A stretch of DNA of 64,000 nt from Escherichia coli (GTDB taxonomy: Bacteria > Pseudomonadota > Gammaproteobacteria > Enterobacterales > Enterobacteriaceae), in assembly GCF_050920415.1 (NCBI RefSeq), contig NZ_CP169309.1, one strand, 5' to 3'. Below, piece after piece: positions 10,149 through 62,310 of this stretch. The notes under the pieces were generated by a model. The model worked only from the letters and a program-made list of their open reading frames with translations, searched no databases and was not told where the DNA came from. Position numbers and translations under genes: made by a program. Numbering within the stretch: position 1 is the first letter of the stretch; each line of letters begins with the position of its first letter.

Positions 10149-10302
10149 AAGTCCTCCGTTATGCACGGCTTAGCATAAGGAAGTACGTAACGTACGGCAT
10201 TGTGCAAATGCCCAAAGGATGAGGAAGATGTATGGAGTTGTGGTGAAGTTCACAGATTGTAAGGAGAACCCCTTCCCGTTTTCAGGAAGGGGTTGAGGAA
10301 GA

Positions 10303-51422: not shown

Positions 51423-53813
51423 ATGGCAATTAACAATACCGGCTCGCGACGATTACTCGTCACGCTAACAGCCCTTTTTGCAGCGCTTTGCGGGCTGTAT
51501 CTACTCATTGGCGGAGGCTGGCTGGTCGCGATTGGCGGCTCCTGGTACTACCCTATCGCTGGCCTTGTGATGCTCGGCGTCGCCTGGATGCTGTGGCGCA
51601 GTAAACGCGCTGCGCTTTGGCTATACGCCGCCCTGCTGCTCGGCACCATGATTTGGGGCGTCTGGGAAGTGGGTTTCGACTTCTGGGCGCTGACTCCGCG
51701 CAGCGACATTCTGGTCTTCTTTGGTATCTGGCTGATCCTGCCGTTTGTCTGGCGTCGCCTGGTCATTCCTACCAGCGGCGCAGTTGCCGCACTGGTGGTG
51801 GCACTGCTGATTAGCGGTGGCATTCTGACCTGGGCCGGATTTAACGATCCGCAGGAAATCAACGGCACCTTAAGCGCCGATGCCACACCTGCCGAAGCTA
51901 TCTCCCCCGTTGCCGATCAGGACTGGCCTGCCTATGGTCGCAATCAGGAAGGTCAACGCTTTTCACCTCTGAAACAAATTAACGCTGATAACGTCCACAA
52001 GCTGAAAGAAGCCTGGGTGTTCCGTACTGGCGATGTGAAGCAGCCGAACGATCCGGGCGAAATCACCAATGAAGTGACGCCGATTAAAGTAGGCGACACG
52101 CTTTACCTGTGTACCGCTCACCAGCGTTTGTTTGCGCTCGATGCCGCCAGCGGCAAAGAGAAATGGCATTACGATCCTGAGCTGAAAACCAACGAGTCTT
52201 TCCAGCATGTAACCTGCCGTGGTGTCTCTTATCATGAAGCCAAAGCAGAAACTGCTTCGCCGGAAGTGATGGCGGATTGCCCGCGTCGTATCATTCTCCC
52301 GGTCAATGATGGCCGCCTGATTGCGATTAACGCTGAAAACGGCAAGCTGTGCGAAACCTTTGCCAATAAAGGCGTGCTCAATCTGCAAAGCAATATGCCG
52401 GACACCAAACCGGGTCTGTATGAGCCGACTTCACCACCGATTATCACTGATAAAACCATCGTGATGGCGGGTTCCGTCACTGATAACTTCTCAACCCGCG
52501 AAACGTCTGGCGTGATCCGTGGTTTTGATGTCATTACCGGGGAGCTGTTGTGGGCCTTTGATCCAGGCGCGAAAGATCCGAACGCGATCCCGTCTGACGA
52601 ACACACCTTTACCTTTAACTCGCCAAACTCGTGGGCACCTGCGGCCTATGACGCGAAGCTGGATCTGGTGTATCTGCCGATGGGCGTTACCACGCCAGAT
52701 ATCTGGGGCGGTAACCGCACCCCAGAACAGGAACGTTATGCCAGCTCAATTCTGGCGCTGAATGCCACTACCGGGAAACTGGCGTGGAGCTATCAGACCG
52801 TTCACCACGACCTGTGGGATATGGATCTTCCGGCACAGCCAACGCTGGCAGATATCACCGTTAATGGTCAAAAAGTTCCGGTTATTTACGCTCCAGCGAA
52901 AACCGGCAACATTTTTGTGCTTGATCGCCGCAATGGTGAACTGGTGGTTCCGGCCCCGGAAAAACCGGTGCCGCAAGGCGCAGCGAAAGGTGATTACGTT
53001 ACACCTACTCAACCGTTTTCTGAACTGAGCTTCCGCCCGACGAAAGATTTAAGCGGTGCGGATATGTGGGGCGCCACCATGTTTGACCAACTGGTGTGCC
53101 GCGTAATGTTCCACCAGATGCGTTATGAAGGTATTTTCACCCCGCCATCTGAACAGGGTACGCTGGTCTTCCCGGGTAATCTGGGGATGTTCGAATGGGG
53201 CGGAATTTCCGTTGATCCGAATCGTGAAGTGGCAATTGCCAACCCAATGGCGCTGCCGTTCGTTTCGAAACTGATCCCACGCGGTCCTGGCAACCCGATG
53301 GAACAGCCGAAAGATGCCAAAGGCACCGGTACAGAATCCGGCATTCAGCCACAGTACGGCGTACCGTATGGCGTTACGCTCAACCCGTTCCTTTCGCCGT
53401 TTGGTCTGCCGTGTAAACAGCCAGCATGGGGCTATATCTCGGCGTTGGATCTGAAAACCAACGAAGTGGTGTGGAAGAAACGCATTGGTACGCCGCAGGA
53501 CAGCATGCCGTTCCCGATGCCCATTCCGGTGCCGTTCAATATGGGTATGCCGATGCTGGGCGGGCCAATCTCCACGGCGGGTAACGTGCTGTTTATTGCC
53601 GCTACGGCAGATAACTACCTGCGCGCTTACAACATGAGCAACGGTGAAAAACTGTGGCAGGGCCGTTTACCGGCGGGTGGTCAGGCAACACCGATGACCT
53701 ATGAAGTGAATGGCAAGCAGTATGTGGTGATCTCCGCAGGCGGTCACGGTTCATTTGGTACGAAGATGGGCGACTATATTGTGGCTTATGCGTTGCCGGA
53801 TGATGTGAATTAA
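51423..53813 (+). CDS. gcd: PQQ-dependent membrane glucose dehydrogenase
   Basis: 796 aa from MAINNTGSRRLLVTLTALFAALCGLYLL...; N-terminal TM helices plus PQQ beta-propeller. Confidence 0.9.
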   Translation: MAINNTGSRRLLVTLTALFAALCGLYLLIGGGWLVAIGGSWYYPIAGLVMLGVAWMLWRSKRAALWLYAALLLGTMIWGVWEVGFDFWALTPRSDILVFFGIWLILPFVWRRLVIPTSGAVAALVVALLISGGILTWAGFNDPQEINGTLSADATPAEAISPVADQDWPAYGRNQEGQRFSPLKQINADNVHKLKEAWVFRTGDVKQPNDPGEITNEVTPIKVGDTLYLCTAHQRLFALDAASGKEKWHYDPELKTNESFQHVTCRGVSYHEAKAETASPEVMADCPRRIILPVNDGRLIAINAENGKLCETFANKGVLNLQSNMPDTKPGLYEPTSPPIITDKTIVMAGSVTDNFSTRETSGVIRGFDVITGELLWAFDPGAKDPNAIPSDEHTFTFNSPNSWAPAAYDAKLDLVYLPMGVTTPDIWGGNRTPEQERYASSILALNATTGKLAWSYQTVHHDLWDMDLPAQPTLADITVNGQKVPVIYAPAKTGNIFVLDRRNGELVVPAPEKPVPQGAAKGDYVTPTQPFSELSFRPTKDLSGADMWGATMFDQLVCRVMFHQMRYEGIFTPPSEQGTLVFPGNLGMFEWGGISVDPNREVAIANPMALPFVSKLIPRGPGNPMEQPKDAKGTGTESGIQPQYGVPYGVTLNPFLSPFGLPCKQPAWGYISALDLKTNEVVWKKRIGTPQDSMPFPMPIPVPFNMGMPMLGGPISTAGNVLFIAATADNYLRAYNMSNGEKLWQGRLPAGGQATPMTYEVNGKQYVVISAGGHGSFGTKMGDYIVAYALPDDVN

Positions 53814-53832
53814 GATTGACTCATATTGCTGA

Positions 53833-55227
<1,395 letters not shown>

Positions 55228-55292
55228 AGTTTTGCGTTTGTCAGCAGAATAATGCCCGGAGAGATCCGGGCATATTTCCGAATACGGTCTTT

Positions 55293-56843
55293 TTATACCG
55301 TAAACCCTAACATCATCCCCGTATCTTCATGCTCCAGCAGATGGCAGTGCGCCATATATGCATGTTCTTTCGGTGCGTCGTGATTAAACTTCACCAGGAC
55401 TTCGCTGACATTACCTTCTACCTTAACAGTATCTTTCCAGCCTGCGCGATGCGTCGCTGGCGGTTTGCCATTTTCTGACAAGATACGGAACTGCGTACCG
55501 TGGATATGGAACGGATGCAGCATCATGTCGCCCACGCCAGAGATAACCCAACGCTCGTACTGCCCTTTTGCTGCCGCAAACATCGGCTTATTCATATCAA
55601 ACGCCTGACCGTTGATTTTATTGGCATGGTGGAAATCGAACTTCCCGCCGTGGTTCATATGATTCATATTGCCGTGCCCCATATGGCCCATCATCTGGCT
55701 GTGATCCATCCCGGCCATCGCCTGATCGCCATATTTCTCCATCAGCATCTGCATCCCCATCATATCGAGCATCGGGTCCATAGAGAGTTGCAGCTTGCGT
55801 ACCGTCAGCCCTTCCAGCGAAGGTAATGCTGGCAGGCTACTTAACGCGTCAGGTAAGGCACCTGAAGCACTAATGGAAATCGGCTGGATCCGCATTACCG
55901 GATGCGGCTTGTCAAACGGTGCAATTGCCATTCCCATCTGGCTGACCGGTAGCGTCACCAGATCAAAGGGTTTGTTGTCGTTAACCTCCACCAGCACTTC
56001 GAAACGCTCGCCCATCAGCACCGGCAGCTCGCTCACCTTCACTGGTTCAGGTAGCAGACCACCGTCGCTGGCAATCACATACAGCGGGCGATTGTCACTG
56101 GTAGCGAAATTGAGCGAGCGGGCGTTACAGCCATTGAGCAAACGCAGGCGCAGCCAGCCGCGCGGGGCGGCGTGTTGCGGGTAGATAGCACCATTGGTCA
56201 GCAGCGTATCGCCAAACCAACCCACGGCAGCGGTCATCACATCCAGTTGATAATCAATCTGCCCGTCAGCGTTAAATTTTTTATCCTGCACGATCACCGG
56301 GACATCATCGATACCCCACTGTTTTGGCAGCATTAATTTTAGAATCTCGTCATCTTCAATCACTACCAGCCCCGCCAGCCCCATCGCCACCTGTCGCCCG
56401 GTTTTGCCATGTTGATGCGGATGGAACCAGCAGGTAGCGGCAGGTTGATCAACGTTCAACGTCACCGTACGCTTGCCACCTGGCGGAATAATTCCCTGCG
56501 GGCCGCCGTCGACTTCACCCGGTACTTCCAGCCCGTGCCAGTGCAACGTCGTTTCTTCCGTCAGTTGGTTATAGATATCAACCGTTACCGCTTTGCCGCG
56601 CTGTAATTTCACCGCCGGCCCCAGCAGATTGCCGTTATAGCCCCAGGTAGTTGCAGTTTTCTCGCCAAAGGTGGACTGACCTGCGCCAATAGTTAACTGA
56701 ATGCGATTACGGGCATCGGTCGTGAGCAAATCAGGGATCGGTAACGTTGGGCGTTCCGCCGCAAATACTGCGCGGCTCCACAGCGGCAAGGCTGAAGCTA
56801 CGCCCAGCGCAATGGAATATTTCAAGAAATCACGACGTTGCAT
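55293..56843 (-). CDS. cueO: multicopper oxidase (cuprous oxidase)
   Basis: 516 aa from [22 protein letters not shown] (Tat signal); Met/His-rich insert; copper-ligand motifs [18 protein letters not shown]. Confidence 0.93.
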
Positions 56844-56888
56844 AGTTATTTCCTTATTCTTAAGCAGGCGAAACAAAATCAAACGTTG

Positions 56889-56919
56889 AGCATAGTCCTT
56901 CCCCTTACGGGAAGGTCAA
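56889..56919 (-). promoter_or_regulatory. MerR-type (CueR-like) promoter/operator of cueO
   Basis: minus strand TTGACC - 19 bp spacer containing the dyad CCTTCCC-N5-GGGAAGG - TATGCT; the 19-bp spacer plus dyad is the MerR-family hallmark. Confidence 0.7.
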
Positions 56920-57008
56920 GCCGCAGACACAATTTAATCAACAATAATGGTCGTCGCCTCGCTCGCAGTGTGCTAACGTTTATCTTCTTTAAGCCCCTGG
57001 TAGAAGCA

Positions 57009-57356
57009 ATGAAGACGTTTTTCAGAACAGTGTTATTCGGCAGCTTGATGGCCGTCTGCGCAAACAGTTACGCGCTCAGCGAGTCTGAAGCCGAAGATAT
57101 GGCCGATTTAACGGCAGTTTTTGTCTTTCTGAAGAACGATTGTGGTTACCAGAACTTACCAAACGGGCAGATTCGTCGCGCACTGGTCTTTTTCGCCCAG
57201 CAAAACCAGTGGGATCTCAGCAACTACGATACCTTCGACATGAAAGCCCTCGGTGAAGACAGCTACCGCGATCTCAGCGGCATCGGCATTCCCGTCGCTA
57301 AAAAATGCAAAGCCCTGGCTCGCGATTCCTTAAGCCTGCTTGCCTACGTCAAATAA
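57009..57356 (+). CDS. yacC: secreted protein of unknown function (YacC family)
   Basis: 115 aa from MKTFFRTVLFGSLMAVCANSYA (signal peptide); longer track ORF overlaps the cueO promoter and is rejected. Confidence 0.85.
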   Translation: MKTFFRTVLFGSLMAVCANSYALSESEAEDMADLTAVFVFLKNDCGYQNLPNGQIRRALVFFAQQNQWDLSNYDTFDMKALGEDSYRDLSGIGIPVAKKCKALARDSLSLLAYVK

Positions 57357-57461
57357 TCCCTGATACCTTTTTGTAGAAATATTGACCGTGCATCCGCGGT
57401 CAATGTTAGCTATTATGTTGCGCCCTTTTTTTACGGGTGTTAACAAAGGAGGTATCAACCC

Positions 57462-58328
57462 ATGGCCGAAAAAAAACAGTGGCATGAAACGCTACACGAC
57501 CAGTTTGGGCAGTACTTTGCTGTAGATAACGTTCTGTATCATGAAAAGACCGCTCACCAGGATCTGATCATTTTTGAGAACGCCGCATTTGGTCGCGTAA
57601 TGGCGCTGGATGGCGTAGTACAAACCACCGAGCGCGACGAGTTTATCTATCATGAGATGATGACCCACGTTCCGCTATTAGCCCACGGTCACGCGAAACA
57701 TGTGCTGATTATCGGCGGCGGCGACGGTGCCATGCTGCGTGAAGTGACCCGACATAAAAACGTTGCGTCAATCACGATGGTGGAAATCGATGCGGGTGTC
57801 GTATCGTTCTGCCGTCAGTATCTGCCCAACCATAACGCCGGTAGCTACGACGATCCGCGCTTTAAACTGGTAATCGACGATGGCGTCAATTTCGTTAATC
57901 AAACCAGCCAGACCTTTGATGTTATTATCTCCGACTGCACCGATCCTATCGGTCCCGGCGAGAGTCTGTTCACCTCAGCATTTTATGAAGGCTGCAAACG
58001 TTGCCTGAATCCTGGCGGTATCTTCGTCGCACAAAACGGCGTCTGCTTTTTACAGCAGGAAGAGGCTATCGACAGCTATCGTAAACTCAGCCATTACTTC
58101 AGCGATGTTGGCTTTTATCAGGCGGCAATCCCGACCTATTACGGCGGCATCATGACCTTTGCATGGGCGACAGATAACGACGCCTTACGCCATCTCTCAA
58201 GCGAAATTATTCAGGCGCGTTTTCTCGCTTCTGGCCTGAAATGCCGTTATTACAATCCGGCAGTCCATACGGCAGCTTTTGCCTTACCTCAGTATCTGCA
58301 AGACGCACTGGCCTCACAGCCGTCCTAA
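57462..58328 (+). CDS. speE: spermidine synthase
   Basis: 288 aa [33 protein letters not shown]... Confidence 0.95.
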
Positions 58329-58343
58329 GGAGAAGATAAGAAA

Positions 58344-59138
58344 TTGAAAAAACTGAAACTGCATGGCTTTAATAATCTGACCAAAAGTCTGAGTTTTTGT
58401 ATTTACGATATCTGCTATGCCAAAACAGCCGAAGAGCGCGACGGTTATATCGCTTATATCGATGAACTCTATAATGCCAATCGTCTGACCGAAATCCTGT
58501 CAGAAACCTGTTCCATTATCGGGGCCAATATTCTTAACATTGCCCGCCAGGATTACGAACCACAGGGTGCCAGCGTCACTATTCTGGTGAGTGAAGAACC
58601 GGTCGACCCGAAACTTATCGACAAAACAGAACACCCCGGCCCACTGCCAGAAACGGTCGTTGCCCATCTCGATAAAAGTCATATTTGCGTACATACCTAC
58701 CCGGAAAGCCATCCTGAAGGTGGTTTATGTACCTTCCGCGCCGATATTGAAGTCTCGACCTGCGGCGTGATTTCTCCGCTGAAGGCGCTGAATTACCTGA
58801 TCCACCAGCTTGAGTCCGATATCGTAACCATTGATTATCGCGTGCGCGGTTTTACCCGCGACATTAACGGTATGAAGCACTTTATCGACCATGAGATTAA
58901 TTCGATTCAGAACTTTATGTCCGAGGATATGAAGGCGCTGTATGACATGGTGGATGTGAACGTCTATCAGGAAAATATCTTCCATACAAAAATGTTGCTT
59001 AAAGAGTTCGACCTTAAGCACTACATGTTCCACACTAAACCGGAAGATTTAACCGACAGCGAGCGCCAGGAAATTACCGCTGCGCTGTGGAAAGAAATGC
59101 GCGAGATTTATTACGGGCGCAATATGCCAGCTGTTTAA
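58344..59138 (+). CDS. speD: S-adenosylmethionine decarboxylase proenzyme
   Basis: 264 aa; ORF begins at a TTG codon ([18 protein letters not shown]...); no in-frame ATG gives the full N-terminus. Confidence 0.9.
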
Positions 59139-59142
59139 CGGC

Positions 59143-59177
59143 TCTGGCGGAGCTCGCAGGCTCCGCCAGATTTATCT
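59143..59177 (+). terminator. intrinsic terminator after speD
   Basis: TCTGGCGGAGC-TCGCAG-GCTCCGCCAGA stem followed by TTTATCT. Confidence 0.6.
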
Positions 59178-59538
59178 ACTTCTGCTGCACAAAATCGCGA
59201 TAAGCCGCCACTACCTGCAAGAAGTCCTCAACGCCGCACAGCGACAGGCTTTCCTCGTCGTAGTAGTTCATTCCCTCTTCCATTTCATCGCCAGCGAATT
59301 CCAGTTGATTGGCGCGAACCATTACCTCTTCACCGTCCATCCACAGGGTGTATTCATGCCCTGCCCGCTGCCAGGAACGTTCGCTGCCTTTGAGCGTGCG
59401 CGCGGCGTCTTCCACTTCATCAAGCAAGGCCAGGTTTTCTTTTACCTCTTCATTAAACCAGTGCCCGACCACCTCATGCCCCATGGACATGCGCACCTTT
59501 ACCACTCCGGTTACATCGCGCAGAAATTCATAATCCAT
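59176..59538 (-). CDS. yacL: UPF0231 family protein
   Basis: 120 aa from [22 protein letters not shown]...; longer track ORF rejected. Confidence 0.85.
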
Positions 59539-59641
59539 AGTGTGTTCCTCTGCTCCCGGCAATGCGCCGAAATCGCATTGCGCCATTGATTTAATTATCG
59601 CAGCCTTATCGGAGAAAAACAGCGGAACGGCGATGGTTTAG

Positions 59642-59680
59642 AAATAAAAAATGCCCGGGAATCTCATTCACCGGGCATTG
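59642..59680 (-). terminator. intrinsic terminator after acnB
   Basis: minus strand AATGCCCGG-loop-CCGGGCATT followed by TTTTTTATTT. Confidence 0.6.
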
Positions 59681-59712
59681 TCTCGTTTATGCGCAGCGGG
59701 TGCGCTTACTTA

Positions 59713-62310
59713 TTAAACCGCAGTCTGGAAAATCACCCCATCTGCTTTTTCGGTGTACTGAGAAAGCTGGTTGAAGTTCAGATAACGGTAAGTATCAACG
59801 GCTGTTTTATCTACCTGCGCCACGTAGGTCTGGTACTCTTCCGGCGTCGGCAGTTTGCCAATCAGCGCCGCAACAGCAGCCAGTTCCGCAGAAGCCAGGA
59901 AGACGTTCGCGCCAGTCCCCAGACGGTTCGGGAAGTTACGGGTAGAGGTGGAAACCACCGTCGCACCGTCTGCTACACGCGCCTGGTTACCCATACACAG
60001 GGAACAGCCAGGGATCTCGATACGCGCACCACTCTTACCGAAGACGCTGTAGTAGCCTTCTTCGGTCAACTGCGCGGCGTCCATACGCGTTGGCGGAGCC
60101 ACCCACAGACGGGTCGGCAGCTGACCTTTATGCGCATCCAGCAGTTTACCGGCGGCACGGAAGTGACCGATGTTGGTCATGCAAGAACCGATAAACACTT
60201 CGTCGATCTTCTCGCCCTGTACCGCAGACAGCGGACGTGCGTCGTCCGGGTCGTTCGGTGCACAGAGGATTGGCTCTTTGATATCAGCCAGATCGATGTC
60301 GATTACTGCTGCGTATTCTGCATCAGCATCGGCTTCCAGCAGCTCAGGATTCGCCAGCCATTTTTCCATGCCCTGAATACGGCGTTCCAGGGTACGACGA
60401 TCGCCGTAACCTTCCGCGATCATCCACTTCAGCAGGACGATGTTAGAGTTCAGGTATTCAATGATCGGCTCTTTGTTCAGCTTGATGGTACAACCGGCAG
60501 CAGAACGCTCGGCGGACGCATCGGTCAGCTCAAAGGCCTGCTCAACTTTCAGATCCGGCAGACCTTCAATTTCCAGAATGCGACCAGAGAAGATGTTTTT
60601 CTTGCCTTTCTTCTCAACAGTCAGCAGACCTTGTTTGATCGCATACAGCGGAATGGCGTGTACCAGATCGCGCAGGGTGATGCCCGGCTGCATTTTGCCT
60701 TTGAAGCGAACCAGAACGGATTCCGGCATATCCAGCGGCATTACGCCTGTTGCAGCTGCAAATGCCACCAGACCAGAGCCCGCCGGGAAAGAGATACCGA
60801 TCGGGAAACGGGTATGGGAGTCACCGCCAGTACCGACGGTATCCGGCAGCAGCATACGGTTCAGCCAGGAGTGGATTACGCCATCACCCGGACGCAGCGA
60901 CACACCGCCACGGTTCATGATAAAGTCCGGCAGCGTGTGGTGCGTGTTCACGTCAACTGGTTTCGGATACGCCGCGGTGTGGCAGAAAGACTGCATCACC
61001 AGATCAGCCGAGAAGCCCAGGCACGCCAGGTCTTTCAGTTCATCACGGGTCATCGGGCCGGTGGTGTCCTGAGAACCGACAGAGGTCATTTTCGGTTCGC
61101 AGTACGCACCCGGACGAATGCCTTTCACGCCGCAGGCACGACCGACCATTTTCTGCGCCAGCGAGAAGCCGCGATCGCTCTCAGCGACATCTTTCGCCTG
61201 ACGGAACACATCGCTGTGTGGCAGGCCGAGTGCTTCACGCGCTTTGGTGGTCAGGCCACGCCCGATAATCAGCGGAATACGACCGCCAGCACGCACTTCA
61301 TCAATCAGCACGTCGGTTTTCAGTTCGAAGGTTGCCAGCAGTTCGCCGGTTTCGTGGTTACGCACTTCACCTTTGTACGGGTAAACGTCAATCACGTCGC
61401 CCATGTTCAGGTTAGAGACGTCGACTTCGATTGGCAATGCACCCGCGTCTTCCATCGTGTTAAAGAAGATTGGTGCAATTTTACCACCGAGGCACAAACC
61501 ACCGCCGCGTTTGTTCGGTACATGAGGAATATCTTCACCCATAAACCACAGCACGGAGTTAGTCGCAGATTTACGCGAGGAACCGGTACCCACAACGTCA
61601 CCCACATAGGCCAGCGGGAAACCTTTCTGTTGCAGAGCTTCGATTTGCTTGATCGGACCAACAACACCCGGCTGATCTGGCTCGATGCCTTCACGCGCGT
61701 TTTTCAGCATCGCCAGCGCGTGCAGTGGGATATCCGGGCGCGACCACGCATCCGGTGCCGGAGAAAGGTCATCGGTGTTGGTTTCGCCAGTTACTTTGAA
61801 GACGGTAACGGTCAGTTTTTCAGCCAGCGCCGGGCGATTCAGGAACCATTCGGCATCCGCCCAGGACTGCATTACCTGCTTCGCATATTCGTTACCTGCT
61901 TTCGCTTTCTCTTCTACGTCATAGAAGTTATCGAACATCAGCAGCGTGTGAGAAAGTGCTTTGGCAGCGATCGGTGCCAGTTTGGCATCATCCAGCGCGT
62001 CGATCAGCGGATGAATATTATAACCACCCTGCATGGTGCCCAGCAGTTCGATGGCTTTTTCCGGAGTCAGCAGTGGGGATTTAGCTTCGCCTTTGGCGAC
62101 AGCAGCCAGGAAGCCTGCTTTGACATAGGCGGCTTCATCGACGCCAGGGGGAACACGGTTGGTTAACAGATCTAACAGGAATTCTTCTTCGCCCGCGGGC
62201 GGGTTTTTCAGCAGCTCTACAAGTGCGGCCATTTGGTTTGCATCCAGGGGTTTGGGCGCAATCCCCTCAGCGGCACGCTCAGCTACGTGCTTACGGTATT
62301 CTTCTAGCAC
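59713..62310 (-). CDS. acnB: aconitate hydratase B
   Basis: 865 aa assuming a GTG start ([22 protein letters not shown]...) preceded by a GAGGAG RBS; the track ORF extends 51 codons upstream. Confidence 0.93.

Follow-up and report, generated by a model that had tools for sequence, protein, structure and literature searches.

In Escherichia coli, the MerR-family metalloregulator CueR is known to control both copA and cueO from promoters in which a 19-bp spacer separates the -35 and -10 hexamers (PMC8169799). The core box recognised by the regulator has been given as CCTTCC-N7-GGAAGG (PMC8169799, there citing Yamamoto and Ishihama 2005); the inverted repeat shares 3 bp with the -35 hexamer and is bound by CueR on the face opposite RNA polymerase, and the CueR dimer bends and undertwists the spacer, leaving the two hexamers ~55 Å apart and back in phase (PMC8169799). 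Promoters in which the core box of PcopA was shifted by 1 bp in either direction (PcopA-1bp and PcopA+1bp) have served to test the effect of position on CueR-dependent activation (PMC8169799). Bending and undertwisting have been described elsewhere together with the role of apo-CueR as a repressor at the same site (PMC5329002). With respect to cueO itself, a PcueO-lacZ fusion is copper-inducible, and PcopA and PcueO have both been deleted as CueR target promoters (PMC9396075); a Delta-PcueO strain has been described as a deletion of the CueR operator site (PMC4507017), and the Salmonella orthologue of cueO is likewise CueR-controlled (PMC2919089).

The window analysed here is a stretch of 64,000 nucleotides of E. 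coli DNA, in which a prior reading of the sequence alone (hereafter the sequence-only reading) had pointed to a MerR-type promoter in front of cueO. The element is, with a probability of about 96%, PcueO, the CueR-dependent sigma-70 promoter of the gene coding for the periplasmic multicopper oxidase, and no sequence evidence running counter to this assignment was encountered. PcueO is already known, being a textbook CueR target, and the copy in the window matches the K-12 reference exactly. Outten et al. 2000 is reportedly the primary paper on CueR and Cu(I)-dependent activation at the cueO promoter; the CueR dependence, the copper inducibility and the distortion mechanism attributed below to the element are taken from the literature.

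Anatomy of the promoter

Direct reading of the minus strand from 56919 to 56889 gave a 31-mer of 6 + 19 + 6 bases, the components of which are listed in Table 1. The two hexamers, the spacer length and the dyad reported by the sequence-only reading were each found to be exact, and the orientation which that reading had left implicit was established as the minus strand, the promoter pointing towards cueO. The promoter lies 45 nt upstream of the cueO start codon, and the predicted transcription start would fall 7 nt past the last base of the -10 hexamer.

Table 1. Features of the cueO promoter and its surroundings, with coordinates in the window.
Feature	Coordinates	Strand	Remarks
cueO CDS	55293..56843	-	516 aa multicopper oxidase; regulated gene; twin-arginine signal MQRRDFLK
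Shine-Dalgarno sequence AAGGA	56851..56855	-	7 nt ahead of the ATG; conserved block in the orthologue alignment
Predicted transcription start region	56880..56884	-	Placed from standard sigma-70 geometry; +1 predicted near 56882
-10 hexamer TATGCT	56889..56894	-	Direct reading
19-bp spacer TTCCCGTAAGGGGAAGGAC	56895..56913	-	Direct count; sigma-70 optimum plus 2 bp
CueR operator dyad CCTTCCC-N5-GGGAAGG	56897..56915	.	7+7, perfect; shares 2 bp with the -35 hexamer
Core half-sites CCTTCC and GGAAGG	56910..56915 and 56897..56902		Promoter orientation
-35 hexamer TTGACC	56914..56919	-	Direct reading
yacC	57009..57356	+	Divergent from cueO; 165-bp intergenic region common to both

Placement of the -10 hexamer after a spacer of 17 or 18 bp was considered and rejected, the resultant candidates (ACTATG and CTATGC, respectively) both being devoid of the critical A-11 and T-7, and a generic sigma-70 scan confined to spacers of 16–18 nt returned no promoter between 56600 and 57200. 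With a spacer of 19 bp, no usable 17- or 18-bp alternative and an empty scan at the more usual lengths, the earlier description of the spacer as suboptimal is thus well founded.

When the whole window was searched for CCTTCC-N7-GGAAGG, the PcueO dyad proved to be the sole site with no mismatches. Seven other matches were recovered, each with two mismatches, giving eight at a tolerance of two mismatches against 2.0 expected, and all seven were devoid of a -35/-10 context. One match with two mismatches and no promoter context, at 10268..10298, is a GC-rich, near-perfect palindrome, AACCCCTTCC-N-GGAAGGGGTT, which looks like a terminator-type or other hairpin. The composite pattern of -35, box and -10 was found once in the 64 kb, whereas 0.01 occurrences were expected.

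It might be supposed that the palindrome and the adjacent hexamers have come together by chance, with cueO being driven from another promoter. Perfect 7+5+7 inverted repeats are indeed common in the window, there being 17 of them compared with ~3.9 expected at random; the repeat alone is therefore not rare, and it is the specific sequence and its context that are distinctive. The excess of such repeats, like that of the box matches with two mismatches, is probably due to REP elements and terminators. The expectation calculated for the composite pattern, the failure to detect an alternative sigma-70-like promoter between 56600 and 57200, and the retention of the arrangement, with its register intact, at 79 of 80 orthologous loci, where it forms the best-conserved intergenic block, all argue against a coincidence, which is considered an extremely improbable explanation of the site.

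Agreement with CueR operators and copA promoters

The PcueO dyad matches the published CueR core box at 12 of 12 positions. Comparison with the K-12 promoter of copA, the gene for the Cu(I) P-type ATPase, namely TTGACC + TTCCCCTTGCTGGAAGGTT + TAACCT, by ungapped alignment of the two 31-mers gave 22 of 31 identical positions: both promoters possess the -35 hexamer TTGACC, a 19-bp spacer and the CCTTCC and GGAAGG half-sites, held in the same register relative to -35 and -10, whereas they differ in the central 7 bp and in the -10 hexamer (TAACCT in PcopA, TATGCT in PcueO).

A weight matrix was then constructed from four copA sites only (E. coli, Citrobacter, Salmonella and Raoultella), those from outside E. 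coli having been fetched by way of their CopA proteins. Of the 127,940 window positions scored with this matrix, the PcueO site occupied ranks 1 and 2, corresponding to its two orientations, with 20.9 and 17.3 bits compared with 12.3 bits for the next best position in the window; the matrix is narrow and its training sites are almost identical to each other, with the consequence that the ranking is informative but the scale of the scores is not meaningful. Far from failing to resemble CueR operator models, an outcome that would have told against the sequence-only reading, the site thus combines a complete core match with the first rank in a matrix derived independently of cueO.

An additional observation concerns orientation. 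When the cueO box was read on the plus strand of the window, CCTTCCCCTTACGGGAAGG, it agreed with the K-12 copA box, CCTTCCCCTTGCTGGAAGG (L002), at 17 of 19 positions, compared with only 14 of 19 in promoter orientation. To judge from these counts, the cueO operator may resemble a copA operator inverted relative to -35 and -10, although this may be a matter of chance. A literature search by exact operator sequence returned no match.

As the combination of long spacer and central dyad is common to the whole MerR family (PMC8169799, PMC7911910), and the K-12 zntA and soxS promoters have the same layout, the architecture would also be compatible with the operator of another member such as ZntR, SoxR or a plasmid-borne MerR, and hence with a response to zinc, redox stress or mercury. 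The operator sequences themselves discriminate between these candidates. Neither the K-12 ZntR operator, ACTCTGGAGTCGACTCCAGAGT, which has a 20-bp spacer, nor the SoxR operator, ACCTCAAGTTAACTTGAGGA, exhibited any in-register similarity to the cueO box, and the best ungapped identities obtained (12/19 for ZntR and 10/19 for SoxR) lay outside, or out of register with, their respective dyads; the copA and cueO boxes, by contrast, agree at all 12 core positions and at 14–17 of 19 overall. Furthermore, the literature found for cueO names CueR alone (PMC8169799, PMC5329002, PMC9396075). Control by a different family member is on these grounds highly improbable, and the MerR-family metalloregulator invoked by the sequence-only reading can be specified as CueR by virtue of the core box, the register shared with PcopA and the identity to K-12 PcueO.

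Conservation and half-site variation

Over the 31-bp promoter and the sequence directly adjoining it, the window shows no difference from K-12 PcueO (the cueO/yacK promoter), and the gene order at the K-12 locus (yacC / cueO - gcd) is as in the window; the intergenic region differs from K-12 in a single base further upstream, and the window also carries an insertion sequence of the IS621 family downstream of cueO, which leaves the promoter untouched. Within the species, a 60-bp promoter block was at least 99% identical in 5197 of 5424 complete genomes. The 8 kb around the promoter show ~96% identity to K-12. The segment of the window from 50648 to 59925 is only ~95–96% identical to K-12, and a 401-bp promoter region attained at least 99% identity in only 6 of 5431 E. 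coli records, the closest match found being strain MFDS1022581; taken together, these two figures indicate a comparatively rare E. coli lineage.

Conservation beyond the species was assessed with 80 cueO loci taken from one-genome-per-species contigs and retrieved by protein similarity, a selection which is as a result independent of the motif. In 79 of the 80, representing ~25 genera of Enterobacteriaceae, the -35 hexamer, the 19-bp spacing, the dyad and the -10 hexamer were all kept in register, in the form TTGAC(C/G), a 19-bp spacer containing the dyad, and TA(T/A)GCT, located 41–53 nt before the ATG. The spacer measured 19 bp at every one of the 80 sites compared (the 79 orthologous loci plus the window). 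Mean column entropy was 0.35 bits in the promoter block, compared with 0.92 upstream, 1.00 in the 5' UTR and 0.66 across the initial 60 nt of cueO coding sequence, and the PcueO block was the best-conserved stretch of the cueO intergenic region in the orthologue alignment.

Among the 47 distinct 31-mers, the invariant positions were T1, T2, G3, A4, C5, T7, T8, C10, G18, A20, G23, T26, A27, C30 and T31. The -35 hexamer consequently reads TTGAC throughout, with C at position 6 in 46 of the 47, while every -10 hexamer begins with TA and ends in CT, the G being present in 46 of 47. The conserved core of the operator is 6+7+6, the perfect 7+5+7 palindrome being restricted to Escherichia and some Citrobacter. 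Co-variation of the half-sites across genera was uninformative, since most core positions are invariant and those that vary change on one side only.

These alignments also bear on the proposition that the dyad is an RNA hairpin (a terminator or attenuator), or part of a known structured RNA, rather than a protein-binding site in DNA. Folding of the palindrome in silico does give a 7-bp stem on each of the two strands, at -15.8 kcal/mol (z-score -1.5) and -14.3 kcal/mol (z-score -2.3), but any palindrome folds and both z-scores are only modest. The stem lacks a trailing T-tract, a terminator scan was empty and Rfam yielded no families at E <= 1. Situated between -35 and -10, and hence upstream of the predicted start, the dyad would lie outside the cueO mRNA. 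Across the 47 sites, pairing at the inner and middle positions of the stem was often lost, k=3 being complementary in 21 and k=5 in 31, and the invariant spacing of the dyad relative to -35 and -10 fits a DNA operator rather than a conserved stem. The likelihood of an RNA element is therefore rated as close to negligible.

The sole exception among the 80 loci was that of Intestinirhabdus alba (L078), in which a CueR-type promoter was not found anywhere in the 6.5-kb locus, a result indicating that not all lineages require such a promoter for cueO. The stretch ahead of the ribosome-binding site is there taken up, from 2217 to 2483 of that locus, by a GC-rich element of ~267 bp upstream of cueO, which has inverted repeats of 25 nt at its ends (92% complementary) and looks like a miniature inverted-repeat element.

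A recurrent asymmetry was apparent in the two halves of the operator. In 32 of the 47 distinct cueO sites (loci L004-L083), spanning most genera, the -10-proximal half-site reads GGAGGG and not GGAAGG (31-mer position 21), while the -35-proximal half-site of the same operators stays CCTTCC. By way of contrast, the copA promoters are near-invariant in the four genera sampled, their operators having a perfect GGAAGG in the -10-proximal half in all four, and only Salmonella varying the other half (CCTTAA). It is conceivable, though rather doubtful, that the GGAGGG asymmetry weakens CueR binding in a tuned manner and thereby establishes a hierarchy, with induction of copA preceding that of cueO; were this so, the perfect 7+7 palindrome would mark out Escherichia as the exception. 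The GGAGGG half-site and the inverted likeness to copA are only mildly new points, and are best regarded as curiosities without demonstrated function.

The cueO locus, its regulator and related systems

That the regulated gene is cueO, as the sequence-only reading had it, was borne out by the full-length match of its product (residues 1–516) to the NCBIfam equivalog NF008205 at 980 bits, the cutoff being 525, and by the RefSeq annotation of an identical or near-identical locus, which agrees. The full-length family alignment placed the start codon at the ATG at 56843, which is common to all 80 orthologues. In a mechanical list of open reading frames, cueO is prolonged to an in-frame TTG at 56882; this TTG would lie in the 5' UTR, right at the predicted transcription start. 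The gene arrangement, acnB-yacL-speD-speE-yacC / cueO-gcd, is standard for E. coli.

Two further strongly conserved blocks were present in the intergenic region besides the CueR promoter. The first, at 56967..56981, reads GTGTGCTAACGTTT on the plus strand and includes TGcTAACGT (56971..56979), which on sequence grounds looks like an extended -10 for yacC; the second, at 56941..56951, reads CAATAATGGTC. Given that cueO and yacC form a divergent pair with a common intergenic region, the CueR site might be thought to control yacC in addition to cueO. However, the centre of the dyad is ~100 bp from the yacC start codon and does not fall within a core promoter of that gene, yacC is preceded by a separate conserved block that resembles an extended -10, and activation of the MerR type proceeds only from inside a spacer (PMC8169799); no link between yacC and CueR was found in the literature. 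Dual control is consequently very unlikely.

Downstream, between the convergent cueO and gcd genes, an IS110-like insertion sequence of the IS621 family (~1.29 kb, ~53913..55200, minus strand in transposase orientation) is inserted at a point directly adjoining a REP-like palindrome, GCCTGATGCGCTACGCTTATCAGGCC. Its transposase frame contains at least two frameshifts and is on that account a pseudogene. The element is missing from this position both in K-12 and in the strain with a 100% match to the cueO promoter region; copies of it were counted in 2247 of 5426 E. coli genomes, the median copy number being five.

CueR is not encoded in the 64-kb window, a tblastn search having returned noise only. 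All but two of 5426 complete E. coli genomes (5424) possess a cueR gene, and in K-12 it is located ~377 kb from cueO; with its gene outside the window, the regulator would have to serve PcueO in trans. Structures on record represent CueR by itself, bound to DNA and in complex with RNA polymerase (1Q05-7, 4WLW, 4WLS, 6LDI, 7C17, 6XH7 and 6XH8). The promoter-DNA complexes, determined by crystallography and cryo-EM, were solved on PcopA DNA, and the structural mechanism is carried over to PcueO by analogy, given the common architecture. On this basis a CueR homodimer would occupy CCTTCC-N7-GGAAGG within the 19-bp spacer, on the side of the DNA that faces away from RNA polymerase. In the absence of Cu(I), the over-long spacer would leave -35 and -10 too distant and out of phase, with apo-CueR keeping the DNA in a repressed shape. 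Binding of Cu(I), or alternatively of Ag(I) or Au(I), would cause CueR to kink, bend and undertwist the spacer, and this distortion would in turn shorten the distance from -35 to -10, restore their phase, and permit open complex formation and transcription of cueO. The CueO protein would then be exported by the Tat route and oxidise periplasmic Cu(I).

The activation by DNA untwisting envisaged in the sequence-only reading is in agreement with the literature, with the refinement that bending and kinking also participate and that apo-CueR represses from the same site; the copper induction of the multicopper oxidase likewise accords with published descriptions of cueO, in which the gene is activated by CueR, inducible by copper and preceded by a promoter with a 19-bp spacer. 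The suggestion that an upstream open reading frame, CruR, regulates cueO was rejected, CruR belonging to a Bordetella copper operon.

The value of the assignment is one of annotation only, namely that of a switch through which the sensing of Cu(I) in the cytoplasm is coupled to copper detoxification in the periplasm. The system is relevant to enterobacterial copper tolerance and virulence. No open question is advanced by the assignment, and its confirmation shows that MerR-type promoter architecture is recognisable from raw sequence.

Amongst the systems described, the MerR archetype, PmerT-MerR of Tn21/Tn501, resembles PcueO in having a 19-bp spacer, a dyad between -35 and -10, and a switch from repressor to activator effected by DNA distortion (PMC7911910, PMC8169799). 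It differs in its operator sequence, its regulator (MerR, responding to Hg(II)) and the genes regulated. In addition, MerR is usually encoded divergently beside its target, a linkage that cueR and cueO do not have. A sibling group of monovalent-metal MerR sensors is represented by GolS, which is not known to occur in typical E. coli; the bases that discriminate CueR-type from GolS-type operators are reportedly the subject of Perez Audero 2010 and Humbert 2013. The Salmonella GolS operators, at PgolTS and PgolB, possess inverted repeats similar to that of PcueO, and these too are situated in 19-bp spacers (PMC2919089).
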